In this document: piece by piece, positions 6,016 to 36,955 of the stretch
How positions within the stretch are numbered: position 1 is the stretch's first letter
How the letters are laid out: every line of letters begins with the position of its first letter
Assembly (NCBI GenBank): GCA_964654175.1
Contig: CAZZGJ010000002.1
Location: 1-39,094, forward strand
Length of the DNA stretch: 39,094 nucleotides
Origin: an uncultured Candidatus Saccharibacteria bacterium
Lineage (GTDB): Bacteria; Patescibacteriota; Minisyncoccia; Phycocordibacterales; UBA5272
Direction of reading: 5' to 3'
Made by a program: the position numbers and the translations under genes
Notes under the pieces: generated by a model
What the model saw: only the letters and a program-made list of their open reading frames with translations
Database searches by the model: none
What the model was told of the DNA's origin: nothing

Positions 6016-7545
6016 ATGTTCAAAGAGATCACACACGGAAGTGAAGCACGAGCCAAAATCAAAGCTGGAATAGATAAAGCAGCCAATGCTGTAGCGCCAA
6101 CACTTGGAGCTGTAGGAATGAGCGCAATGATTGAGTATCCAGGACTTGATCCTATTCATGCTGATGACGGCGTTACTATTCTTAAAAACATAGAGCTTGA
6201 AGATAAACATGAAAACATGGGTGTCCAGACGCTACGAAAAGCTGCTATTCGTACTTCTGAGGAAGGCGGTGATGGGACAGCAACGACTACCATTCTTACC
6301 CAGGCTCTTGTGGGTGAGGCATTTAAGGAAATCGAAGTCGACTCCTCAAAAATACGAGAGGTTCGTGAAAGACTTGAACAAGGATTGGTTGAAGTATTGG
6401 CAGAACTCGCAGAACTAAAGCGTGACGTTACAGAAGACGATATTGAACGCATTGCTACTATTTCTTCACTTGATCCAGAAGTGGCTAAACTCATTGCAGA
6501 AGTCATTAAGGAAGTAGGAGTTAGCGGTGTAGTGACTGTAGAGCGTGGCGCACAACTTGGATACAAGAAGGAAGTGGTAAAAGGCGCTCGTTTCGATAGT
6601 GGGCTTATTTCGCCATTCTTTATCAACGACCATGAGAACGTCCAGACCGTATTGGAAGATGCGTTTATTGTTCTAGTTGACCGTAAAATCAGCATGAACG
6701 AGCAAATCATCCCACTACTTAATTCAATTGGCACAGGACAAGACATTCTCTTTATCGCTACAGACGTTGAATCAGTCGCATTGGGAACTCTAGCGCATAA
6801 CGCTGCTAACGGTATTGCAGACATTGCATGTGTCCGAAACCCACTAAATGCAAGCGCTGGACGAGATTTTCTCTTTGATATGGCTGCTCTAACAGGCGCT
6901 ACCGTTATCTCTGAGGAAATGGGCATGAAGCTAGATCAAGCTGATGTAAAGCTATGTGGACGGGCTGAGAAGGTTATCGTTACCAAAGACACCACAACTA
7001 TCATTGGTGGAGTAGCTGGAGAAACGCTAGAAGCCCGTGTAAAGGACATTGAGCGCCAAATTAGTGAAACTACCAGTGACTACCAGAAAATGATGCTCAA
7101 AGACCGTTTAGCACAGCTTACGGGGGGTATAGGAGTCATCCGAGTGGGTGCTTACACTGATACTGAGTTCAATGCTAAGAAGTACAAGTTCCAGAATGCT
7201 ATTAACGCTACTCAGGCAGCTTTACAAGAGGGTATTCTTCCAGGTGGAGGCGCTGCACTAATGTCTGTTACCGTCAAAGAAAAGATGTTTAAGAAGGCAA
7301 TCCGAGCGCCATTCTTCCAAATGGCTAAGAATGCAGGCATGGATATAGAGTTTGAAGCAAATCAGACATATGCAGCAGGCTATGGAACCAACTTCAAGAC
7401 TAAGGAAGAAGGCGTAAATATGTTTGAGCAAGGCATTATCGATCCTTTCAAAGTGACTCGATTGGCACTAGAGAGCGCTACAGCCATTGCTATGAGCCTT
7501 GTAGGAACTGAAACTGTTATTACCGTTAAAAAAACAGATGAGTAA
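6016..7545 (+). CDS. groEL: chaperonin GroEL-like (Cpn60), 509 aa
   Basis: Group I chaperonin hallmarks: ARAKIKAGIDKAANAV, GDGTATTTILTQALV (GDGTTT ATP-binding motif), VGAYTDTE, LPGGGAAL, IIDPFKVTRLALESA. It has no C-terminal GGM tail. Confidence 0.92.
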   Translation: MFKEITHGSEARAKIKAGIDKAANAVAPTLGAVGMSAMIEYPGLDPIHADDGVTILKNIELEDKHENMGVQTLRKAAIRTSEEGGDGTATTTILTQALVGEAFKEIEVDSSKIREVRERLEQGLVEVLAELAELKRDVTEDDIERIATISSLDPEVAKLIAEVIKEVGVSGVVTVERGAQLGYKKEVVKGARFDSGLISPFFINDHENVQTVLEDAFIVLVDRKISMNEQIIPLLNSIGTGQDILFIATDVESVALGTLAHNAANGIADIACVRNPLNASAGRDFLFDMAALTGATVISEEMGMKLDQADVKLCGRAEKVIVTKDTTTIIGGVAGETLEARVKDIERQISETTSDYQKMMLKDRLAQLTGGIGVIRVGAYTDTEFNAKKYKFQNAINATQAALQEGILPGGGAALMSVTVKEKMFKKAIRAPFFQMAKNAGMDIEFEANQTYAAGYGTNFKTKEEGVNMFEQGIIDPFKVTRLALESATAIAMSLVGTETVITVKKTDE

Positions 7546-21717: not shown

Positions 21718-22698
21718 ATGCTTACTTACACCACAGCACTATCTACCTACCAAAACTGGACAGATAATTCTAGTGCAAATCAAACAAACGGCGCACAGTT
21801 TCTCAATGATTCAGTGCGTACAATCTGTAACTTGCAAGGCGGAAAACTACGCTTTTTGGAAGCTACTAAAGACATGGAAACTGTAGCAGGACAAGAAGCC
21901 TACCAAATACCTGCAAAGTTCCGAAAACTAATAGATTTATACATCTACAGTGGCGCAGGGACGGACTCAGACACCATTTACTCTCCTGAAATGGTCTTTG
22001 ATCCTACTAAGTGGAAGTACATTAAGCAGGCACGATATGGCTCATCTTCAACACCGTACTTCACATACGTAGAAAACCAAAAGTTCTACATCAATCCAGT
22101 TCCTTCTGTATCTGGAAACAAAATCACATTACGTGGTCGTATCAATGTGCCTGATCTTGGCATTGCCGATTACACTACAGGAACAATTGTTTCAATTGCT
22201 AATGGTGGTACTGCTTTGGTAGGTTCTGGTACTACATGGACTGCAGACATGGTGGGTCGTTACATCAATATCCCACGAACTACTGCTGCAGGTGGTGGCG
22301 ATGGTTTGTGGTACGAAATTGGAGGCTACACCAGCGCCACTGCACTGACACTTCTAAAACCATACGAAGGAACCAGCATTGCTGCTGGCACTGCTACATA
22401 CACTATTGGACAAGTGCCACCGATACCAGAAGCGTATCAGATGGCAATGGTTTACCGAGCGTGTGCTTTGTATTGGGAAGATAAAAGTGAAGGAGAAAAA
22501 GCAAAACGCTTCTGGTTACGTTACGATGGAGGTAACGAAGCAGGTTATAATAATGACTATGGCGGTCTGATAAGTCAAATGCTCGCAAATGAAGGGGAAA
22601 CGGAAGAAGGAGCATACATTCCACCATTTGGAAGCACATTAAATACACCGCAAGCACCGTATTACTTCCCTTATGAGCAAGCTAGTGGATTAACATAA
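21718..22698 (+). CDS. virion structural protein (326 aa)
   Basis: Track ORF in the structural block. Confidence 0.6.
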   Translation: MLTYTTALSTYQNWTDNSSANQTNGAQFLNDSVRTICNLQGGKLRFLEATKDMETVAGQEAYQIPAKFRKLIDLYIYSGAGTDSDTIYSPEMVFDPTKWKYIKQARYGSSSTPYFTYVENQKFYINPVPSVSGNKITLRGRINVPDLGIADYTTGTIVSIANGGTALVGSGTTWTADMVGRYINIPRTTAAGGGDGLWYEIGGYTSATALTLLKPYEGTSIAAGTATYTIGQVPPIPEAYQMAMVYRACALYWEDKSEGEKAKRFWLRYDGGNEAGYNNDYGGLISQMLANEGETEEGAYIPPFGSTLNTPQAPYYFPYEQASGLT

Positions 22699-22703
22699 TT
22701 ATC

Positions 22704-24107
22704 ATGAAACCTACACCTAAACAAACATACATCAGCAATGTAGCAACATCACCAGGACTCACTAACCTGAGAAATTCTGCACAGAAAAAGCCAGTTGTAT
22801 TTGGATTGCCTACTTCTGGTAAAGTTCCCGCACCTACATTGCCAACAGGTACTGCAAACTCTACTAGCGCTTATCCAAAAGGAGTAAATTCACCGAATCC
22901 AACGGCTGGAAACATTACCCCATCCTCTCCTGGAGCTACAGGAACCATGCAGGGACCAATTAAGCCTGCTACTGCTACTACCAATCGAACAGGGACCACA
23001 AGCAGTAGTCTGCCACCTGCAGGACAGGAATTTGCTAGTAAACTAGCTGGAATTAAGACAGGTCTTACTGATGTGCAAGATCGTCTAAATACATACACTA
23101 AAGAAAATACTGGAGCGCCTGAAAAGAAAGAATCAGAGTATTTGAAGTACTTGCGTACAATGTTTAATCCAGAAGAAGCAAAACGAGCGCAGGAGAACGT
23201 AAATAACCTCAATAAAATGACTGCTGATGAAATTAAGCGTAACCGTGATGAACAAGACCGTATTCAGAAAAACGAAGCTGGCATGGTAGAACGTGGTCAA
23301 ACCTTCCTATCTGCTAGTTCTGGCAGAGCATCAGCAAAAGCATTGGCTGATCTTGCTATTGCTAAAGGTTACTCAACTGACATTCTTACTCAATTCACTG
23401 ATGCTGGTAAATCGATTTACGAAGCAGAAGAAGCTATGCGTAAAGAAGCAGAATCACCGCTTACACTGGAAGAAGCAACAAAGCTTGGACTTCCATTTGG
23501 AACCACGATGGCTGAGGCTCGTAAGGCAGGTAAGATTCCTAGTAGTGGCGGAGAGACCAATGAAGCTACTGTATTTGCATACGCTGATTTGGTGAACAGT
23601 GGCGGTATGAGTATGGAAAACGTACCAGAGGAATACCGTGGACAGGTAGCGCAAGCAGTTGCTCTCGGAGGCGGAAAGAAGCCTGTTATCTCAGACTACC
23701 AACAGGAGCGCATCACTCGTAACCTCAACAGTATCAGTGACCTTGAAACACAGGTAAATAAGTGGACTACGGGTCCAGGAAGCCTGCTCAGTATGATCCC
23801 TGGCACTGCTGCACGAGACTTCAAAGCAGACGTTGATACACTTGCAGCTAACATTGCTTTTGGAGAACTCACCGCTATGCGTGAGGCTTCTAAGACAGGT
23901 GGCGCACTTGGAGCAGTATCTGAAAAAGAACTTCAATTGCTTGAATCTGCTCTTGGTTCACTAGATCGAGCGCAAAGTCCAACTCAGTTCAAAGAAAGTC
24001 TTGCAGAAATCAAAGCAAGTATTAACCGATGGCAAGATGCCGTTGCACAATACGGAGGTGGAACTATGGGAGGAGACACAGAAGGAGACTCATTATTCAA
24101 CTGGTAA
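22704..24107 (+). CDS. internal virion / ejection protein candidate (467 aa)
   Basis: Disordered P/T/S/G-rich N-terminus followed by a long helical region. Lies directly upstream of the transglycosylase-bearing protein. Confidence 0.5.
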   Translation: MKPTPKQTYISNVATSPGLTNLRNSAQKKPVVFGLPTSGKVPAPTLPTGTANSTSAYPKGVNSPNPTAGNITPSSPGATGTMQGPIKPATATTNRTGTTSSSLPPAGQEFASKLAGIKTGLTDVQDRLNTYTKENTGAPEKKESEYLKYLRTMFNPEEAKRAQENVNNLNKMTADEIKRNRDEQDRIQKNEAGMVERGQTFLSASSGRASAKALADLAIAKGYSTDILTQFTDAGKSIYEAEEAMRKEAESPLTLEEATKLGLPFGTTMAEARKAGKIPSSGGETNEATVFAYADLVNSGGMSMENVPEEYRGQVAQAVALGGGKKPVISDYQQERITRNLNSISDLETQVNKWTTGPGSLLSMIPGTAARDFKADVDTLAANIAFGELTAMREASKTGGALGAVSEKELQLLESALGSLDRAQSPTQFKESLAEIKASINRWQDAVAQYGGGTMGGDTEGDSLFNW

Positions 24108-24119
24108 CTAAAAAACAGT

Positions 24120-26990
24120 ATGCCACCAACAGAAAACTCATTGGATCCACAAGTAGTGGCTATGGCTAAAGCCATACGGCAAGCAGAAAGCGGTAATCGT
24201 GCTGTTTTACCGCAAGAGGGCGCAGGTGTTGGTGGAGCATCTCGTTACCAATACACTCATGACACATGGAAAGGTGTCGCACAAAAGTATCTTGGAAATC
24301 CTAATGCTGAGTTAAATTTAGAAAATGAAAACAAGGCTTCTTATTTGAGAATTAAAGAATGGAAAGATAAAGGCTTCAACGTAGGACAGATTGCTTCCAT
24401 GTGGAACGCTGGCGAAGGCAGACCAAATGCGTACCGTGAAAACTGGAGAGGGGTAAATAAGCATGGTGTTGTATATGACACACCAGCTTATGCAGCTAAA
24501 GTTGCTCGTGCCTACCAACAATTCAAGAGTGAAGCCATGCCAACCGTACAGGCAGCTACCGAAACACCAGCGCCAGTTGAGGAACAAAAGCCTTTTTCAT
24601 TGACACAAGTAGCTAAAGAAGTAGTTTCTCCAGTAACAACCATGCTGGCACGACCATTTCAAGCAATTCAATCTGCTGCACAGCTATTTAGATCTAACCG
24701 TGAAAATCCAGACTTGGAAGCTAACGCTAAAAAATACAGTGACGAAGCTTACAAGCTATCGTTACAGCTACGTGATCCACAGCTAACACCAGAACAAAGA
24801 ATTAGTCTGACAGGAGAAATCCAAAGGAATCAACAATTAGCTGAATACTACGGTAACAGACTATCAAGTAATGCTAATTACAAGCCTTTTTCTACTGAAA
24901 CACTGGTAAAACCAGCGCCAGAAAACATGGCAGACGTTAAAAAAGATGTAGGACGGGGAATTCAGACCGTTGCTTTTGGTCTTGGTCCAGTTTCTGGAGG
25001 CGCAGCCTTTGGAACAGGTATGTCACTAGAAGATGGCAATGATTTACTTAGCTGGGATACCGCAGCCTACACTGCAGGTGGTTTAGTGCTAGGTAAGGCA
25101 GCCGATATAGTCGGAAAACCGCTTCTAAATGCTGCTGGTAAGGTAGTAGGAGTTATTACTCCACAAATGCTTAAAAACGTAGCTGCAGGAGGCGCAAAAG
25201 CCATGCAGACATTCATGGAGACTAACAAACTGCTTCCAAATTCTATAAGCAGACCACTCAATAAGGGGGCTGCTGCTCTTGAAGTTGGCGCTAATGCACC
25301 ATTTAAGGCTGCTGCTGCACCTTTCAGGCAAGTAGATGAAAAAGTTATTGCTAGACGAGAACAGGCATTGAAGGAATTGGAAGAAAAATACGCTCAATTA
25401 CGTGATAATGCAGCACGAAATCCAGAAGCTACTGCAGGCACACGGGGACGAGTAGCACGAAGTAATGTTCTTACAGAAGATAACATGGTCAATGAAGACG
25501 GAGTTATCATTGGCGCTAAAGAAGCAGCTAAAACCTACCGAAAAGAAACAATTGGAGAGGGCGAAAGCTTAGTTCGACAGTTGCTTACAAAAGAAGGTGT
25601 TGGAGTAGATATTGGTGTTGTAGAAAAAGAACTTCAAAAAGTATTGAAAGAATCATTTAGTGGTCGTGAACTCATTTCTGCACTAAATGCTATGAAGCGA
25701 GAAATTGCAGGATTGCGTCTCAAAAATCCAAACGGACGCATCATGCTTACTGATTTGCATGATGCTAAAGTTCAGCGTCAACCAGGCAGCAAAGCCTACG
25801 ATAACTCAGAAACTAAAGCTGTAGACAAGCAAATTGCACGAGCGCACAAGCAAGTCATTGAAAACAACAGTGGCGAAAAGGTACGTGAAATTAACGCTGA
25901 AATTGGCAAATTCTTGGGTGACGCAGAATACATTGAAAGCTTGCAAGGAAAGCGTATTGGAAACGGCAAATTAGGACGTACAGTGTCGCAAGTAGCTGGC
26001 GCTGTGGCAGGAGCTGCAGCAGGTGGAGCGCTTGGAGGGCTTCCAGGAGTGGCTGTTGGATCATATGTGGGTGGATCTGTTTCACGTAAGCTCTCAGGGC
26101 GTGGATTGCGCAATGCGCTTGGTAAACCAACCAAGGTAGCACAGACTAAGAGTGCTGTATTTGAAGCTGGCAGGGAGCGCTTAAACCGTAAAGACTTGGC
26201 ACTACCGCCTGGACCAGCTAAAGGAACTGCTAAGAACCCAATTGTTACTCCAATTAAGGACAAAGGCACTGGTCCTGTTAGCGTTAAAGCTTTGAAGGGT
26301 GAGCCTGTACGAAATAAAAAAACAGGTCGCTTTGAACGTACCTATCTCAGTAGTACAAATGACAAAGAAACCAATTTAGCACTGGAAAAAATCAAAGTTG
26401 CAAAAGCAATTGATACAAAGCTATTAAAAGCAGACAAAGCCAAAGAATATATTGATGAAGCTGCTGATAAAATTGCTAAGAAGTATGGCGATAGCGTAGT
26501 AGTAGCAAAGGCACCAATTAAAAGTCGGGAGCGAGCGATTGAGAAAACTATCAAAGAAAACGGTGGAAATGCTGACAAAATTAAAGATTTGGCACGAAAC
26601 ACCATCATGCCAAAGGATAAAAAAGTGTACCAAAAAGTACTTGATGACATGGACGCTAGAAAAGACCTTGTTACACGTAAAGACCAACATCCAGAGGATT
26701 ACATGGGGTATGAAGGCATTATCTACCATGTAGAAACACCAGGTGGGCTTATTTCAGAAACACAAGTGGTCACTCCTAAAATGATTTACGGCAAGATGCC
26801 AGTAAATGAAGCAAAGACTTTATTGGGTGAAGACCTTTTCAACCAAATTAAAAAGGAATCAGGAGTAGAACCAGAGCTTGGACACAAGTACTACGAACAA
26901 TTCCGAAAGCTCACTATTAAAGAAAAGGAAGGAAAAGTAGGACAAGATCTCACTGAAAAATCCATTGAGTATTACAACAAACTACGTTAA
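24120..26990 (+). CDS. virion protein (956 aa): N-terminal lytic transglycosylase, Gly-zipper membrane segments, C-terminal RelA/SpoT-type synthetase-like domain
   Basis: N-terminus: AIRQAESGN...YQYTHDTW...MWNAGEG (SLT-like). Middle: GAVAGAAAGGALGGLPGVAVGSYVGGSV. C-terminus (about 26511 onward): APIKSRERAIEK, IKDLARNTIM, GYEGIIYHV, ISETQVVTPKM, HKYYEQFR, which match the RSH synthetase motif series. Confidence 0.8.
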   Translation: MPPTENSLDPQVVAMAKAIRQAESGNRAVLPQEGAGVGGASRYQYTHDTWKGVAQKYLGNPNAELNLENENKASYLRIKEWKDKGFNVGQIASMWNAGEGRPNAYRENWRGVNKHGVVYDTPAYAAKVARAYQQFKSEAMPTVQAATETPAPVEEQKPFSLTQVAKEVVSPVTTMLARPFQAIQSAAQLFRSNRENPDLEANAKKYSDEAYKLSLQLRDPQLTPEQRISLTGEIQRNQQLAEYYGNRLSSNANYKPFSTETLVKPAPENMADVKKDVGRGIQTVAFGLGPVSGGAAFGTGMSLEDGNDLLSWDTAAYTAGGLVLGKAADIVGKPLLNAAGKVVGVITPQMLKNVAAGGAKAMQTFMETNKLLPNSISRPLNKGAAALEVGANAPFKAAAAPFRQVDEKVIARREQALKELEEKYAQLRDNAARNPEATAGTRGRVARSNVLTEDNMVNEDGVIIGAKEAAKTYRKETIGEGESLVRQLLTKEGVGVDIGVVEKELQKVLKESFSGRELISALNAMKREIAGLRLKNPNGRIMLTDLHDAKVQRQPGSKAYDNSETKAVDKQIARAHKQVIENNSGEKVREINAEIGKFLGDAEYIESLQGKRIGNGKLGRTVSQVAGAVAGAAAGGALGGLPGVAVGSYVGGSVSRKLSGRGLRNALGKPTKVAQTKSAVFEAGRERLNRKDLALPPGPAKGTAKNPIVTPIKDKGTGPVSVKALKGEPVRNKKTGRFERTYLSSTNDKETNLALEKIKVAKAIDTKLLKADKAKEYIDEAADKIAKKYGDSVVVAKAPIKSRERAIEKTIKENGGNADKIKDLARNTIMPKDKKVYQKVLDDMDARKDLVTRKDQHPEDYMGYEGIIYHVETPGGLISETQVVTPKMIYGKMPVNEAKTLLGEDLFNQIKKESGVEPELGHKYYEQFRKLTIKEKEGKVGQDLTEKSIEYYNKLR

Positions 26991-26999
26991 TATCCGTAT

Positions 27000-27173
27000 A
27001 TGAAATACTATGAATCCACACTCCATGAAGTAAAAGTCAGAACAGACGCTGACGCTAACGAAGCGTTTATCAAAGCTGATAAAAAAGAAAGAAAAGTACC
27101 TGTTACTAACAAAGTGGTAAACGATGCAATTTTAGAGGGGAACACGATCTCAGAAGCTGAATACGCTAAGTAG
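27000..27173 (+). CDS. hypothetical protein (57 aa)
   Basis: Below the track cutoff. MKYYESTLHEVKVRTDADANEAF...AEYAK. Preferred over the antisense track ORF 27008..27190. Its stop abuts the -35 box at 27174. Confidence 0.45.
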   Translation: MKYYESTLHEVKVRTDADANEAFIKADKKERKVPVTNKVVNDAILEGNTISEAEYAK

Positions 27174-27202
27174 TTGACAGTATGTACCAATAGGTATATA
27201 CT
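27174..27202 (+). promoter_or_regulatory. sigma70-type promoter with a palindrome in the spacer
   Basis: TTGACA-17 nt-TATACT. The spacer contains GTACC-aata-GGTAT. The -10 box ends 6 nt before the ATG at 27209, giving leaderless geometry. Confidence 0.6.
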
Positions 27203-27208
27203 GGCACT

Positions 27209-27781
27209 ATGTTAAGTAACGTTGTACACAAAGCAATCATTTTTGCTACCAAAGCTCACGAAGGACAGTTTCGCAAAGGAACTGATGTTCCCTATATCGT
27301 GCATCCTATGGCAGTAAGTTTGCTGGCGTACTCGTATACCAAAGATACAGATCTCGCAGTCGCTGGCTTACTCCACGACACAGCAGAAGATACTGCCGTC
27401 ACTATTCCCGAGATTCACGCTCTTTTTGGCGAAAGGGTGGCTATGTTAGTTGATGCTGTTACTGAGGAAGATCCAGCAGACACCTGGAAGGAACGTAAAA
27501 AGAAAGCGCTGGCTCGTGTAGATCGCTACAGCTCAGATGAATTAATCCTTAAAGGCTCAGATGTCATGGCAAACTGTCGAGACATTCTCAAAGATTACAA
27601 AGAGCATGGGGAAAACCTGTGGACACGTTTTAATCAGTCGGGCAGGGGAAATCTAGTCGATCACTACGTCATTATGCTCAAAACCCTTAAAAATAAGGCT
27701 ATTTACAGCACTGCACCATTCGTATTTATCCGTGATTTAGACGAAACTTTAGCTGAAATGCAGGACGTTTTTGATGTGTAA
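27209..27781 (+). CDS. HD-domain (p)ppGpp hydrolase, small alarmone hydrolase (SpoT/Mesh1-like), 190 aa
   Basis: AIIFATKAHEGQFRKGTDVPYIVHPMAV...AGLLHDTAEDT...FGERVAMLVDAVTE is the canonical RSH hydrolase HD-motif series. Confidence 0.85.
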   Translation: MLSNVVHKAIIFATKAHEGQFRKGTDVPYIVHPMAVSLLAYSYTKDTDLAVAGLLHDTAEDTAVTIPEIHALFGERVAMLVDAVTEEDPADTWKERKKKALARVDRYSSDELILKGSDVMANCRDILKDYKEHGENLWTRFNQSGRGNLVDHYVIMLKTLKNKAIYSTAPFVFIRDLDETLAEMQDVFDV

Positions 27782-27786
27782 AAAGC

Positions 27787-27815
27787 TTGACATTATATAC
27801 CGATAGGTATATACT
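27787..27815 (+). promoter_or_regulatory. sigma70-type promoter with a palindrome in the spacer
   Basis: TTGACA-17 nt-TATACT, with a perfect ATATACC-gata-GGTATAT at 27795..27812. Confidence 0.6.
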
Positions 27816-27819
27816 AAGT

Positions 27820-28425
27820 ATGAAGTTAGCAGATAACCAAATACTCACTATGTCACACACATCAACAATCACCACACAGCGCATGCTCCGTATTCCATCG
27901 GACATGACTCAACTATTCAATGAGGATGCTATCGAGGTCTACACCAAAACAGTAGACGGCAAGATGGTCGCTATGGGCTTCGCAGGGAAGCGAACCAAGC
28001 CAGACTTTTACTACCGTTTCTCCACTGTCGAGCGCATGTACGAATACATCAACAACTGGCGCACCAACATTGAGTCCCACAACACCTATGTAAAAGAGCA
28101 GAAAGAAAAGCGTCTCCAAGACACCACTCTCAAAGTAAACGACATCCTAGAGGGTACATGGGGATACGAACAAACAAACGTCACGTTCTATCAAGTATTA
28201 AAAGTGGTCGGCAAGCGCATGGTAGAGATCCAAGAAATCGGAGCTTCACTCGACTGGAACGGCGGTCCGAGTGCTTACTCAACTCCAGTCCCTAACTCAT
28301 TCAAGGGCAAGCCAGAACGCAAGATGGTTTCAAACGGTCACTACATCAGTATCAACAGTTATCTCTCAGTCACACCGTGGAATGGAAAGCCTGTCAGTAT
28401 TACTGGTCCAGGATGGGGACATTAA
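27820..28425 (+). CDS. hypothetical protein (about 201 aa)
   Basis: Track ORF 27787..28425 begins on the TTG of the -35 box. Trimmed to the ATG at 27820; the ATG at 27850 is an alternative. Confidence 0.65.
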   Translation: MKLADNQILTMSHTSTITTQRMLRIPSDMTQLFNEDAIEVYTKTVDGKMVAMGFAGKRTKPDFYYRFSTVERMYEYINNWRTNIESHNTYVKEQKEKRLQDTTLKVNDILEGTWGYEQTNVTFYQVLKVVGKRMVEIQEIGASLDWNGGPSAYSTPVPNSFKGKPERKMVSNGHYISINSYLSVTPWNGKPVSITGPGWGH

Positions 28426-28826
28426 AAACCTTTTCTCCATCCAACCAAATTGCACTTATTAGAGCAGTATTTGGACTTTGGAGCCTTGATAGAAACACCA
28501 CAATTAGCACAGACTCTATCCATGACTGTGCTTTTTTGATTTAGTTCGTTCTCAATATCTCGATGGTGTTTAGAACAAACCCATGTAACATCGAGGGGTT
28601 TTAAGTAGTCTCCATGGTGAGCTTCTATCCTACCTTTACAATCAGATCCATAATTTTTACAAGCTGACGGTACTAATTTACCTTGCTTAACAGCATACGC
28701 CACCAAATTTCTAGCAGTTACTTTTTGTTTATCCCGATTTCGTTTATAGATTTTAAAATATTCATTTCTATTACGGGAGCGCTTCTTAGCTTTGTCTCCC
28801 CATGTATCAGCGTATGGCATATACAA
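28422..28826 (-). CDS. HNH endonuclease
   Basis: CKNYGSDCKGRIEAHHGDYLKPLDVTWVCSKHHRDIE (HNH core) plus CANCG...CSNKC. The track start is TTG at 28826. The ATG at 28820 lies 6 nt after a TATAAT box (28832..28827). Confidence 0.75.
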   Translation of the reverse strand: MYMPYADTWGDKAKKRSRNRNEYFKIYKRNRDKQKVTARNLVAYAVKQGKLVPSACKNYGSDCKGRIEAHHGDYLKPLDVTWVCSKHHRDIENELNQKSTVMDRVCANCGVSIKAPKSKYCSNKCNLVGWRKGF

Positions 28827-29477: not shown

Positions 29478-29506
29478 TTGACTTTATATACCTATGGGTA
29501 TATAAT
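29478..29506 (+). promoter_or_regulatory. sigma70-type promoter with a palindrome in the spacer
   Basis: TTGACT-17 nt-TATAAT, with TATACC-tatg-GGTATA at 29487..29502. Confidence 0.6.
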
Positions 29507-32399: not shown

Positions 32400-32654
32400 G
32401 TGCGTTCAAACTGTTATGCGTATGTAAAATACACGTATCCTGAGACACCAGACACTGCTACCATTCTTGCTAACTTATCTGATAGTGGTGAGATTGCCGT
32501 TTTTTATTATCCTGAAAGTGGTCTGTACCACTATGCAGTAGTGGAAAGCCTGGAACCGTTTATTGTTTCTGATACCAACTACGGCTCAGATACAAAAAAG
32601 ACCCGTCAAGAGACAGGTCTTCACCTCATTGGTTTTTACGATCTGGACAGATAA
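32400..32654 (+). CDS. Cys/His cell-wall amidase/peptidase-like domain (CHAP or NlpC/P60 type)
   Basis: SNCYAYVKYTY (Cys) ... HYAVVES (His). The GTG at 32400 is the only canonical start, but the frame is open from 32193 and encodes a signal-peptide-like ILRFITFTIFCLTLPLIVIAEPS. Confidence 0.5.
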   Translation: MRSNCYAYVKYTYPETPDTATILANLSDSGEIAVFYYPESGLYHYAVVESLEPFIVSDTNYGSDTKKTRQETGLHLIGFYDLDR

Positions 32655-32977
32655 GCGAGAGCTTTTTTGGCATACGCACCAGAGTCATATTCGACTCCAT
32701 GCTTATTTGTGCCTTTCACCTCAACTGGCCGTCCTGAGTTCCACATGAGGAAGATCTCTTTCTCTGTGTATCCCTGCACTAACCATTTTTGTACCATCAT
32801 GGTAGCGATGTACATTTCGTTGGTCTTGCTAATGGGAGCTACGTAGCCAATAGTCTCTTTGGACCACATTGCATACGTAGCAGGAAGGAACTGGAGACAG
32901 CTCTTTAGTTCACCACTGCCACCTTGCAAGTGACAAACAAACTCACCATTGGTTTCTGCTCCCCATATAGCCTGCAC
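32636..32977 (-). CDS. lytic transglycosylase (SLT-like) domain protein
   Basis: AETNG...LQFLPATYAMW...MWNSGRP...GTNKHGVEYDSGAYAKKALAY is paralogous to the N-terminus of 24120..26990. GTG start; the catalytic Glu is only 8 residues in. Confidence 0.7.
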   Translation of the reverse strand: MQAIWGAETNGEFVCHLQGGSGELKSCLQFLPATYAMWSKETIGYVAPISKTNEMYIATMMVQKWLVQGYTEKEIFLMWNSGRPVEVKGTNKHGVEYDSGAYAKKALAYLSRS

Positions 32978-33374: not shown

Positions 33375-33407
33375 TTGACTATATACCGATAGGTATGTTA
33401 GTATAAG
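33375..33407 (+). promoter_or_regulatory. promoter/operator copy (displaced -10)
   Basis: GTAGTTGACT, then TATACC-gata-GGTAT (33382..33396). The -10 candidates are TAGTAT and TATAAG. Confidence 0.45.
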
Positions 33408-36927: not shown

Positions 36928-36955
36928 TTGCAGTATATACCGAACAGTATATAAT
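36928..36955 (+). promoter_or_regulatory. sigma70-type promoter with a palindrome in the spacer
   Basis: TTGCAG-16 nt-TATAAT, with TATACC-gaac-AGTATA at 36936..36951. Confidence 0.55.

Follow-up and report, generated by a model that had tools for sequence, protein, structure and literature searches.

A putative phage virion protein with a transglycosylase-family carrier and a Tas1/Apk-type toxin domain in an exchangeable C-terminal slot

The window, meaning the whole stretch of 39,094 nucleotides that was analysed, comes from the genome (about 39 kb) of an uncultured phage. The gene that ends its structural operon encodes a protein whose C-terminus, from about aa 749 to 956, is clearly homologous to the toxin domain, a (p)ppApp synthetase, of Tas1/Apk1. 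The best explanation of the gene product is a phage virion protein built from modules: a wall-cutting transglycosylase at the head, a body that is helical and rich in Gly, and a C-terminal slot for exchangeable cargo; this explanation taken whole, with carrier, Tas1/Apk cargo, three-part cassette and delivery, is considered probable.

24120..26990, + strand: carrier-toxin fusion gene, 956 aa, ATG start, end of the structural operon
24135..24542, + strand: predicted N-terminal lysozyme-like (SLT/Rpf-type) lytic transglycosylase domain, aa 6-141 (model, family profile)
24873..25322, + strand: first Gly/Ala-rich, weakly hydrophobic region, aa 252-401 (composition, conserved glycines)
25323..25964, + strand: central all-helical carrier domain, aa 402-615 (model)
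25965..26099, + strand: Gly-zipper segment, candidate membrane-inserting hairpin, aa 616-660 (composition, conserved glycines)
26100..26363, + strand: basic, Pro-containing, largely disordered linker, aa 661-748, end of the shared carrier (composition, model)
26364..26987, + strand: Tas1/Apk-family RSH pyrophosphokinase toxin domain, aa 749-956 (sequence match, model, conservation)

The open reading frame was confirmed as given in a preliminary description of this DNA, and all nine motifs listed there were found in their places: AIRQAESGN (aa 18-26), YQYTHDTW (aa 43-50) and MWNAGEG (aa 94-100) in the head, the Gly-zipper string (aa 627-654) in the body and, in the C-terminus, APIKSRERAIEK (aa 798-809, nt 26511), IKDLARNTIM (aa 821-830), YMGYEGIIYHV (aa 861-871), ISETQVVTPKM (aa 878-888) and HKYYEQFR (aa 922-929). 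Since four full-length homologues (P0002-P0005, 69-80% identity) come from independent samples, the fusion architecture is no assembly artefact. The fusion gene is under purifying selection over its entire length.

Toxin domain, immunity genes and cargo slot

By phmmer, the toxin domain matched Tas1 (6OX6_A) with E=4.4e-29 and 38-39% identity. Its AlphaFold model (pLDDT 89.2) retrieved Tas1 at rank 1 in Foldseek (TM 0.82, E=4e-14), with RelQ, RelP, Rel and CapRel next (TM 0.45-0.58). All catalytic columns that are invariant across 163 family members are retained, and K801, K809, D823, R826, G863-Y864, E880, Q882 and H922-x-Y-E stand in invariant or nearly invariant columns. Among the retained columns are those of R330, E382 and Q384 in the active site of Apk1, as well as the one of the Asp that matches SaEAS D121 (PMC12691689). 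Selection on the domain is strong (pN 0.09 vs pS 0.79). The Tas1 match, the Foldseek result and the kept catalytic columns bear out the earlier proposal of an RSH-fold synthetase of the toxic kind. The predicted fold is clearly RSH-like, and the suggested Pfam check (RelA_SpoT, PF04607) returned no match. The motif series does begin at aa 798, but the fold itself begins at about aa 749-770.

Changes were found at two ATP-site positions: Tas1 K353 and N370 correspond to Leu and Ile here. The K355 column, mostly basic in the family, holds Thr. The K353 and N370 columns are variable across the 163 members, and Ile at the N370 position defines a subclass of 37 of them.

Directly 3' of the fusion gene lie immunity and non-structural genes, with the following features:

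27000..27173, + strand: gene for a 57-aa Tis1/IapK-like immunity protein (Pfam PF24154, orthologues, selection)
27174..27202, + strand: sigma-70-like promoter TTGACA-17-TATACT with embedded palindrome TATGTACC-N4-GGTATATA (consensus, conservation)
27209..27781, + strand: gene for a 190-aa small alarmone hydrolase (SpoT-type HD domain), candidate enzymatic immunity (Pfam HD_4, TIGR00691)
27787..27815, + strand: second promoter/operator copy, directly 3' of the hydrolase gene, 26 of 29 bases the same as in the first

The Tis1-like gene begins 9 nt past the stop codon of the toxin gene. Its product matched Tis1_ImmP (PF24154) with E=8e-6 and 26.3 bits, just below the cut-off of 27 bits, and the orthologues of loci L005 and L006 scored above it (27.4 and 28.1 bits). 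L007 and L008 have weaker matches after their Tas1 cargo, and none was found downstream of ParB or Zeta cargo. The hydrolase, with its HD motif at aa 56-57, matched HD_4 (E=2.7e-15) and TIGR00691 (E=1.4e-22). Both genes are under purifying selection, with pN 0.09 vs pS 0.70 for the Tis1-like gene and pN far below pS for the hydrolase. Toxin, Tis1-like protein and hydrolase form a cassette of the type proven experimentally for MuF-Apk2 (PMC10083569, PMC12226406), and in the same arrangement of Apk2, BcTis1 and Aph1 cumulative protection has been demonstrated (PMC10083569; PMC12226406).

The hydrolase gene has a separate, conserved promoter/operator, which matches the consensus at 11 of 12 positions, stops 7 nt before the hydrolase ATG and recurs at the corresponding position of L005 and L006. 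Its palindrome occurs five times in the genome, against 0.01 copies expected by chance, and all five copies lie within the non-structural half.

The slot itself varies. Carrier homologues with other cargo (58-70% identity) cease to be similar within the first helix of the toxin part (aa 777-797, nt 26448-26510), and their tails beyond this point are Zeta_toxin, ParB_N or ART-PolyVal. Tis1-like and HD genes are missing from the syntenic loci L001, with ParB cargo, and L003, with Zeta cargo; in L005 and L006, with Tas1 cargo, both are present, and the hydrolase gene follows Tas1 cargo in these two loci only. On such sequence comparison, the C-terminus is a polymorphic cargo slot whose immunity genes co-vary with the cargo type. 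Elsewhere among phages, a Mu-type portal and XkdF-type prohead proteases, which are capsid-interior proteins, carry fused Tas1-like domains, in favour of virion association here. The preliminary description had flagged the HD gene as a candidate antidote, which the HD_4, TIGR00691 and SAH structure matches uphold, but it overlooked the 57-aa ORF, the separate promoter/operator of the hydrolase gene and the polymorphic nature of the slot.

The toxin more likely makes (p)ppApp than (p)ppGpp, although the linked hydrolase is nearer to general SAHs (7QOC, E=7e-23; 7QOE, E=9e-21) than to the (p)ppApp-specific Aph1 (7SMG, 8e-7 only). An alarmone synthetase that makes (p)ppGpp or a mixture, and so mimics the stringent response instead of being a pure (p)ppApp/ATP-depletion toxin, is unlikely. 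Besides the hydrolase, it could draw on the Ile at the N370 position and on the Apk1-like family, in which (p)ppGpp is the sole product of VpEAS and AaEAS, and SaEAS yields both products (PMC12691689). Against this stand Tas1 as the nearest characterised relative in both sequence and fold, the Tis1-type immunity partner and the phage Apk2 domains, all those assayed giving (p)ppApp only (PMC12226406).

The carrier and its place in the structural operon

The transglycosylase domain was modelled with pLDDT of about 85-95 and carries the putative catalytic Glu E23 at nt 24186-24188; E23, Q44 and W95-N96 are invariant across the carrier family. PF06737 was matched by 8 of the 14 family members and PF01464 by 7 of the 14, and the family profile matched Rpf structures with E=1.7e-4. 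The assignment is made at family level only, because the window protein by itself has no Pfam match to SLT or Transglycosylas; the SLT-type N-terminus proposed earlier is thus supported by its motifs and its family, but not by a Pfam SLT match of its own.

Behind the head, the first Gly/Ala-rich region contains 19% Gly, is modelled with low confidence and has nearly invariant glycines at G278, G287, G289, G294, G306, G340 and G344. The central domain (pLDDT 75-90, helices only) is common to carrier homologues with other cargo. The Gly-zipper segment has 28% Gly, zero acidic residues and ten glycines that hardly vary, the first being G616 and the last G651, and the Pfam Gly-zipper match to the fusion protein is not significant (E=1.2). 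Its description as membrane-like is plausible, but its hydrophobicity is moderate (Kyte-Doolittle maximum 1.5) and its two predicted helices are of low confidence; any membrane-spanning segments, and their number, are tentative. The linker contains 24% K+R, with pLDDT below 50 for aa 694-748.

Two genes precede the fusion gene in the operon:

21718..22698, + strand: 326-aa gene, orthologues with the Pfam SU10_adaptor family (podovirus adaptor; PF24175 on orthologues)
22704..24107, + strand: 467-aa gene, candidate companion ejection/internal virion protein (PHROG, synteny)

The PF24175 annotation comes from orthologues of the 326-aa gene with 86-90% identity, and its own protein has weak PHROG tail-protein matches. 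The 467-aa gene is syntenic in all relatives, and one of the PHROG families that its product matches is phrog_2534, with the annotation 'released from the phage upon host infection' (E=1.8e-9). The carrier had no PHROG match, and the TerL of this phage is only about 25% identical to that of any cultured phage. The position at the operon end, the transglycosylase family and the adaptor and 'ejected' PHROG neighbours agree with the view that, in gene position and in design, this is a protein like those virion proteins that open the wall.

It is improbable that the carrier is the tape-measure protein of a long-tailed phage and no podovirus internal or ejection protein, in which case the cargo would still enter at infection by another route. 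Tape-measure proteins often have Rpf/SLT motifs and Gly-rich hydrophobic stretches, the carrier profile does match Rpf, tape-measure proteins appear among the BFVD matches (weak, E of at least 0.1) and most structural genes of the phage are without a recognisable family. On the other hand, the better BFVD matches are to an 'internal (core) protein' and to polyvalent proteins, the podovirus SU10_adaptor family is found on orthologues of the gene two positions upstream, and nothing recognisable as a tail tube, sheath, chaperone or baseplate gene was seen. The downstream neighbours are not distal-tail genes, and a genome of this size also argues against a tape measure.

Delivery and relation to known systems

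From gene position and analogy only, we infer that the fusion protein is packaged in the virion and injected with the DNA. In the preferred explanation, the cargo would have come as a three-part unit of toxin domain, Tis1/IapK-type protein and small alarmone hydrolase. With ATP as the donor, the toxin domain would add pyrophosphate to the 3'-OH of adenine nucleotides or, with lower probability, of guanine nucleotides, making (p)ppApp and draining ATP; the Tis1/IapK-type protein would block its active site and the hydrolase would destroy its product. Late in infection, the fusion protein would be made alongside the co-transcribed Tis1-like inhibitor, so that the producing cell would not be poisoned, and would be packaged in a capsid without ATP. 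At the next infection it would be expelled with the DNA, like podovirus ejection proteins such as T7 gp16; the transglycosylase would work in the wall, the C-terminal toxin would reach the cytoplasm, and a burst of ATP consumption together with the alarmone could arrest host metabolism and ATP-dependent defences. The hydrolase gene may be part of an operator-controlled non-structural promoter set, and fresh Tis1-like protein and hydrolase would end or limit the toxin pulse as a putatively timed antidote.

About as improbable as the tape measure is a toxin that is not delivered into new hosts but serves late host shut-off or lysis timing in the producing cell, is released at lysis, or takes part in warfare of lysogens against competitors, as proposed for MuF toxins. 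Toxin-adjacent immunity genes would be required under any model, and even MuF toxin delivery remains hypothetical (PMC10083569; PMC5576092). However, an extracellular toxin would have neither ATP nor a route into cells, the toxin is fused to the C-terminus of a wall-cutting structural-operon protein, the interchangeable cargo (Zeta kinase, ParB-like nuclease, ART) acts in the cytoplasm, and a lysogen role is unsupported here, no integrase being recognised among ORFs of 300 aa or more.

As a cassette, this has precedents in MuF proteins of phages. Fusions of a phage virion protein to a Tas1-like (p)ppApp synthetase, with a Tis1-like protein and a hydrolase for immunity, are published and have been tested experimentally for MuF-Apk2 (PMC10083569, PMC12226406), and a study of 2017 had predicted that injected phage 'polyvalent proteins' contain RelA/SpoT and lysozyme domains (PMC5512222). 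The earlier remark that a fusion to a virion wall-degrading protein is undescribed goes too far; it is just the particular carrier that was absent from the literature searched. With the MuF-Apk2, IapK (BcTis1) and Aph1 system (temperate phages; Bacteroides caccae, Streptococcus pneumoniae, Mannheimia, Pasteurella; PMC10083569, PMC12226406, Bartoli 2023), the present protein shares a Tas1-like pyrophosphokinase domain at the C-terminus of a virion protein, a small Tis1-type inhibitor gene followed by an HD-domain alarmone hydrolase gene, a polymorphic cargo position and injection with the DNA as the working hypothesis. It differs in its carrier, which is no MuF protein but one of about 750 aa that starts with a transglycosylase, has Gly-rich segments and is encoded at the structural operon end, and in a hydrolase closer to general SAHs than to Aph1. 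No integrase was recognised here, whereas descriptions of MuF toxins confine them to temperate phages. The hydrolase overlaps the immunity gene in 525-aa Apk2-type loci, whereas here it has its own operator-bearing promoter.

Tas1/Apk1-Tis1 of Pseudomonas aeruginosa PA14 (6OX6), to which the toxin domain is closest both in sequence and among solved structures, has the same catalytic residues and a Tis1-type immunity protein, yet Tas1 is delivered via a PAAR domain and T6SS (type VI secretion), the pair has no hydrolase partner, and positions 353/370 are Lys/Asn and not Leu/Ile. Polyvalent proteins (Iyer et al. 2017, PMC5512222) are likewise late-gene multidomain proteins with wall-degrading and cytoplasm-acting effector domains. 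They are predicted to be injected with the DNA, and their effectors include RelA/SpoT, DdrB-type ParB, ART-PolyVal and Zeta kinase; a lysozyme-ParB fusion in late phage genes is explicitly described, and RelA/SpoT domains are reported from MuF fusions and from the polyvalent proteins that spirochaete and epsilonproteobacterial (pro)phages encode (PMC5512222). The BFVD matches obtained here include proteins with the labels polyvalent, ART-PolyVal and DdrB-like. No mention of the transglycosylase-carrier-Tas1 architecture or of its Tis1-like and SAH immunity was found in that paper, and unlike proteins with 2-15 domains, the present one bears a single effector cargo, more like a polymorphic toxin.

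T7 gp16, with its transglycosylase in the periplasm and its C-terminus in the cytoplasm (PMC8954989), is also a large protein that ends an internal-protein gene block and has putative membrane segments. Its N-terminal lytic transglycosylase has the E-S/T, Q and N-x-G-E-G-R motifs in register with those found here, E23 standing opposite the catalytic E37 in an alignment of weak score (E~0.01). Beyond these motifs there is no detectable homology, the central carrier domain giving no match to gp16; gp16-C binds DNA and is without a toxin, and gp14- and gp15-like companion genes were not identifiable in this phage.

The preliminary description had proposed an alarmone synthetase or a CapRel/FaRel2-type tRNA pyrophosphokinase. 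A Tas1/Apk-type nucleotide pyrophosphokinase is favoured because of the TM of 0.82 vs 0.49 for CapRel and the Tis1-type immunity gene 9 nt downstream. A CapRel/FaRel2/PhRel-type enzyme that acts on the tRNA 3'-CCA and blocks translation would share the RSH fold, and CapRel is among the structural matches. Kurata and others are said to have found in 2021 that SAH-type antidotes counter toxins of this kind. Even so, such an enzyme is very improbable, given that CapRel comes at rank 48 (E about 9e-4), that the identity lies with Tas1 and that no Pfam or PADLOC-style toxSAS architecture was seen. Least probable of all is a decayed, inactive remnant retained as a structural C-terminus, which would fit the missing RelA_SpoT match and the substitutions at Tas1 K353, K355 and N370 but not the full set of family-invariant catalytic residues, the strong purifying selection on the domain or the retention of two immunity genes that are themselves under purifying selection.

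The C-terminal toxin domain

The fusion gene is an ORF of 956 aa on the plus strand (24120..26990), and all the motifs listed in the preliminary description were recovered at the residues and nucleotides it had assigned to them. Four full-length homologues, with 69–80% identity, were found on ~39-kb contigs from independent metagenomes, and thus the fusion is real and not an assembly artefact.

When the C-terminal part (aa 761-956) was compared with solved structures by phmmer, the single match was Tas1 (6OX6_A; E=4.4e-29), the type VI toxin by which P. aeruginosa makes (p)ppApp, aligned over aa 769-956 and so across the whole toxin domain. An AlphaFold model of the domain, built from a seven-sequence alignment (pLDDT 89.2, pTM 0.81), adopted the alpha/beta fold of RSH synthetases and again placed Tas1 first in Foldseek (TM 0.82, E=4e-14), with RelQ/SAS1, RelP, RelA/Rel and CapRel behind it at TM 0.45–0.58. 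The RSH domain also dominated the matches in a fold search with the full-length model. On sequence and predicted structure, the RSH-type C-terminus proposed in the preliminary description was confirmed and sharpened to a Tas1/Apk-type nucleotide pyrophosphokinase; the alarmone-synthetase side of that proposal stood in this form, and the alternative of a CapRel/FaRel2-type tRNA kinase was abandoned. Membership of the toxSAS group (CapRel, FaRel2, PhRel) was likewise rejected, with CapRel at TM 0.49 against 0.82 for Tas1 and the domain fused to a structural protein rather than standing free in a toxin–antitoxin pair.

Neither the full protein nor aa 761-956 matched Pfam RelA_SpoT (PF04607) at E<=1, and Pfam/NCBIfam scans that covered the full protein, its C-terminal 196 aa and three sub-regions returned no RelA_SpoT, SLT or MuF match. 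The Pfam match anticipated in the preliminary description was thus missing, which taken alone resembled what that description had named as grounds for giving up the RSH reading; that conclusion was reversed by the sequence search of the PDB and by the fold search. On RelA_SpoT, a Tas1-like relative whose carrier is a portal scores 26.8 against a cut-off of 27, which places the Tas1-like clade at the edge of this model.

An exhaustive profile search delimited a domain family of 2,737 representative clusters, and conservation was read from an alignment of 163 members. Invariant columns hold the two lysines of motif 1 (K801 and K809 in the window protein), Asp and Arg within IKDLARN (D823 and R826), Gly in G-Y, and Glu in E-x-Q (E880); the conservation of catalytic residues expected at the outset was found. 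The Tyr, Gln and H-x-Y-E columns are nearly invariant (155–162/163; Y864 160/163, Q882 162/163), and the window protein keeps the set K801, K809, D823, R826, G863-Y864, E880, Q882 and H922. In Apk1, the active site comprises R330, E382 and Q384, and the Asp column is equivalent to SaEAS D121 (PMC12691689). Equivalents of the Apk1 ATP-binding and catalytic residues D327, R330, Y366, E382 and Q384, together with the two motif-1 lysines, are all kept. Tas1/Apk1 K353 and N370 are replaced by Leu and Ile, respectively, in two columns that are variable (Ile in 37/163), and the K355 column, mostly basic across the family, holds Thr. The domain is under strong purifying selection, with pN 0.09 against pS 0.79 relative to L005, a syntenic locus with the same cargo. 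Relatives within the Apk1-like family make (p)ppGpp (PMC12691689), and the product here may be either (p)ppApp, with depletion of ATP, or (p)ppGpp.

The transglycosylase-like carrier and its exchangeable cargo

The SLT-type N-terminus of the preliminary description was supported at the level of the family and not for the window sequence by itself. The window head alone matched no transglycosylase model, and the loop that follows its E-S-G motif is divergent. Its identity is nonetheless 46–68% with family members that do match such models: PF06737 (Transglycosylas) is matched by 8/14 members and PF01464 (SLT) by 7/14. Homologues score 31–34 bits against a cut-off of 27. The family profile matched Rpf structures with E=1.7e-4, and residues E23, Q44 and W95-N96 are invariant in the family. 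By hhalign, the head aligned weakly with the N-terminal part of T7 gp16 (E~0.01), with three motifs in register and E23 opposite E37, the catalytic residue of gp16 (PMC8954989). For the family of the carrier, the ~750-aa part upstream of the cargo, hhalign against full-length T7 gp16 aligned the N-terminal 53 columns only (E=0.36), with nothing beyond the transglycosylase motifs, and the carrier was not accepted as a gp16 homologue. No MuF/SPP1-gp7 N-terminal domain was found among the Pfam matches for the whole protein or its parts, and the N-terminus is transglycosylase-like.

In the full-length model, a confident helical head (aa 6-141) is joined to two Gly-rich stretches, modelled with low confidence and holding many near-invariant glycines, a confident helical domain (aa 402-615), a basic, disordered linker (aa 694-748) and the toxin domain (aa 749-956). 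Uncultured-phage proteins of ~1,000–1,100 aa in BFVD align along the whole model and are automatically labelled RelA/SpoT, DdrB-like, ART-PolyVal-like or polyvalent; PHROGs holds no family for the carrier. The head is itself mosaic: between the window (24120-24542) and the syntenic locus L006 (5001-5420), identity is 45% in the head and 76% in the central carrier, and two head variants occur, ESGN-RAVLPQEG...RYQY and ESGGxFxAxGxSGExGAYQ. A related gene stands apart from the carrier:

32636-32977, minus strand: free-standing transglycosylase-like gene, 113 aa, 42% identical to head aa 76-132, with GAETNG and W-N-S-G motifs

This ORF is possibly an endolysin, and related minus-strand copies are present in L001 and L005.

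A full-length search returned 290 relatives, many of which match the first ~777–797 residues at 58–70% identity and diverge beyond, with tails assigned to Zeta_toxin, ParB_N, ART-PolyVal or none. In the syntenic loci, the upstream genes are 63–95% identical, and the Tis1-like and HD genes that follow the toxin in the window are present only with Tas1-like cargo (L005, L006), being absent where the cargo is ParB-like (L001) or Zeta-like (L003). Since the immunity genes track the Tas1-like cargo despite conserved upstream genes, the toxin domain and its antidotes move as a unit. Judged from these loci, the exchange of cargo together with matching antidotes is characteristic of polymorphic toxin systems.

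The candidate immunity genes and the promoter of the hydrolase

An ORF of 57 aa, which was not mentioned in the preliminary description, occupies 27000..27173 and starts 9 nt after the stop codon of the toxin. Its product scores 26.3 bits on Pfam Tis1_ImmP (PF24154; E=8e-6), just below the cut-off of 27, which the orthologues in L005 and L006 exceed with 27.4 and 28.1 bits, respectively. Small ORFs downstream of the more distant Tas1-cargo genes in L007 and L008 gave weak Tis1_ImmP matches, and those downstream of ParB or Zeta cargo gave none. The next gene (27209..27781, 190 aa) encodes a SpoT-type HD hydrolase (HD_4 2.7e-15, TIGR00691 1.4e-22). Among solved structures it is nearest to small alarmone hydrolases (E=7e-23), with Aph1, which is specific for (p)ppApp, at 8e-7. 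The order toxin / Tis1(IapK)-like / hydrolase is that of Apk2-type MuF loci, with a hydrolase that is SAH-like rather than Aph1-like. The toxin domain, the Tis1-like protein and the hydrolase make up the “bicistronic immunity” cassette that experiments have established for MuF-Apk2/BcTis1/Aph1, where a single antidote gives partial protection and both give full protection (PMC10083569; also PMC12226406).

A sigma-70-like promoter close to consensus (TTGACA-17-TATACT) ends 7 nt upstream of the hydrolase ATG and contains the inverted repeat TATATACC-N4-GGTATATA; L005 and L006 have it conserved at the corresponding position. With this promoter directly before the hydrolase, the Tis1-like gene belongs to the structural transcript of the toxin, and a unit under separate control begins with the hydrolase. 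Embedded in sigma-70-like promoters, the palindrome is present in five copies in the window, against 0.01 expected by chance, each copy with a -35-like hexamer:

27181-27200, 27794-27813, 29485-29504, 33380-33399 and 36934-36953: copies of the 20-bp palindrome, confined to the non-structural right-hand part

The set looks like the operators of a candidate phage repressor. This split regulation, with the inhibitor co-transcribed with the toxin and the hydrolase on its own operator-bearing promoter, suggests a temporal programme, which has not been described for MuF systems. Two genes lie just beyond the cassette:

27787-28425, plus strand: ORF of 212 aa, with a match to phrog_37844 and a start inside the second promoter
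28422-28826, minus strand: HNH-type endonuclease gene (PHROG E=1e-17)

For the 212-aa ORF, translation probably begins further downstream, at the ATG at 27820 or 27850, and the ORF is kept downstream of the cargo region in L003 and L005, regardless of cargo type.

Genome setting, proposed delivery and relation to known systems

The fusion gene closes a structural operon that also contains TerL, the major head protein, a gene with orthologues carrying SU10_adaptor, and a 467-aa protein marked as “ejected” in PHROG annotation. In long-tailed phages, a tape-measure gene is expected between the tail chaperones and the distal-tail or baseplate genes; here, the SU10-type adaptor and 467-aa protein lie upstream and the immunity and non-structural genes downstream, in a divergent, thinly annotated module, and a tape-measure protein is accordingly unlikely. 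The adaptor and a 680-aa protein had no match in the PDB, and ten other structural ORFs had none in Pfam, so the tail type is read mainly from the SU10_adaptor match of the orthologues. Among GenBank phages, tblastn gave a single weak match, to the toxin domain only, and likewise a single weak match for the adaptor; TerL reaches ~25% identity at most, and there is therefore no cultured relative for virion proteomics. Because the phage is so far from anything cultured, both tail type and virion location are what we infer. A check for a temperate lifestyle recognised no integrase among ORFs of 300 aa or more and found the operator-like palindromes; the window holds no tRNA genes and no terminal repeat. 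One gene was informative on the clade:

6016-7545, plus strand: full-length GroEL gene (PHROG E=4e-113)

Among the top 120 relatives of this gene (68–90% identity), almost all come from phage-sized sources, many of them contigs of ~35–42 kb. A large clade of uncultured phages, ~40 kb in size and encoding GroEL, is indicated, and no cellular neighbour hints at a host.

The domain assignments, the catalytic competence read from sequence, the co-variation of the cassette, the purifying selection and the separate promoters are established here, and a course of infection can be proposed. Late in infection, the inhibitor would shield the producing cell during toxin synthesis, and the fusion protein would be packaged into the particle. 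In the next infection, the protein would leave with the DNA, its transglycosylase working on the wall and its C-terminal domain entering the cytoplasm, in the manner of T7 gp16, whose transglycosylase acts at the wall and whose C-terminal part reaches the cytoplasm (PMC8954989). Once there, the toxin domain would turn ATP into (p)ppApp, in a pulse ended by the hydrolase and newly made inhibitor. The likeness to T7 gp16 is limited to the transglycosylase motifs, and a gp16-type role in the virion core and in ejection is proposed by analogy.

The most far-reaching version of this scheme is possible yet doubtful. In it, a probably short-tailed phage without a recognisable integrase would carry an active (p)ppApp synthetase on the cytoplasmic end of its ejection machinery, and a seconds-scale ATP crash would open every infection, disabling host metabolism and ATP-dependent defences. 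Rescue would come from the hydrolase, a timed antidote made from a dedicated, operator-controlled promoter. The slot, exchangeable for a Zeta kinase, a ParB-type nuclease or an ADP-ribosyltransferase, would define a second family of phage polymorphic-toxin delivery beside MuF.

Virion delivery is further supported by Tas1-like domains on capsid-interior carriers of other phages, namely a Mu-type portal and XkdF-type prohead proteases, among 73 IMG/VR loci. One of these loci holds the domain in tandem with an ADP-ribosyltransferase exotoxin domain:

L020, 745-3540: Tas1-like fusion to a Mu-type portal, 931 aa
L012, 5296-6570, and L067, 2124-3422: Tas1-like fusions to XkdF-type prohead serine proteases, 424–432 aa
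L043, 4123-6570: Tas1-like domain in tandem with ADP-ribosyltransferase, 815 aa

In the literature searched, no discussion of these portal, prohead-protease or ART-tandem carriers was found. None of the 73 loci has a transglycosylase head, and among the best 150 of the 2,737 domain-family representatives it was seen in P0237 and in the window's own cluster only.

The preliminary description had not recognised the fusion as an architecture already described. Neither the cassette nor the concept of Tas1-like toxins carried by virions is new: MuF toxins (PMC5576092, PMC10083569, PMC12226406) and injected polyvalent proteins with RelA/SpoT and lysozyme domains (PMC5512222) are on record. The transglycosylase carrier, a cargo polymorphism of four types with immunity genes gained or lost in step, and the separately regulated hydrolase were not found in the literature searched. 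For Apk1 homologues, the N-termini given in a 2025 census are Sec, XopAD, MuF, DUF4157 and Rhs/PAAR, with no mention of transglycosylase or lysozyme. MuF Apk2 systems share the three-gene cassette, whereas the window carrier has no MuF domain and its hydrolase is SAH-like rather than Aph1-like. The MuF-Apk2 papers state as open whether phage-borne polymorphic toxins are actually injected and how the phage benefits. Here, the physical rationale is clearer than for MuF, with a wall-cutting end and a cytoplasm-acting toxin end encoded at the position of a podovirus ejection protein. The natural swaps, with one carrier, four cargo types and immunity genes gained or lost alongside, make the toxin–immunity logic directly testable, and the range of Tas1-type toxins is extended to the large clade of uncultured phages of ~40 kb that encode GroEL.

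The fusion protein is a late-gene multidomain product that combines wall attack with a cytoplasmic effector and has domains shuffled among its orthologues, the features by which polyvalent proteins were defined by Iyer and others (Iyer et al., 2017; PMC5512222). Two relatives of the carrier, P0026 (1180 aa) and P0096 (950 aa), have the Tas1-like domain in an internal position with another 220–340 aa after it, which suggests two-cargo versions nearer to true polyvalent proteins.
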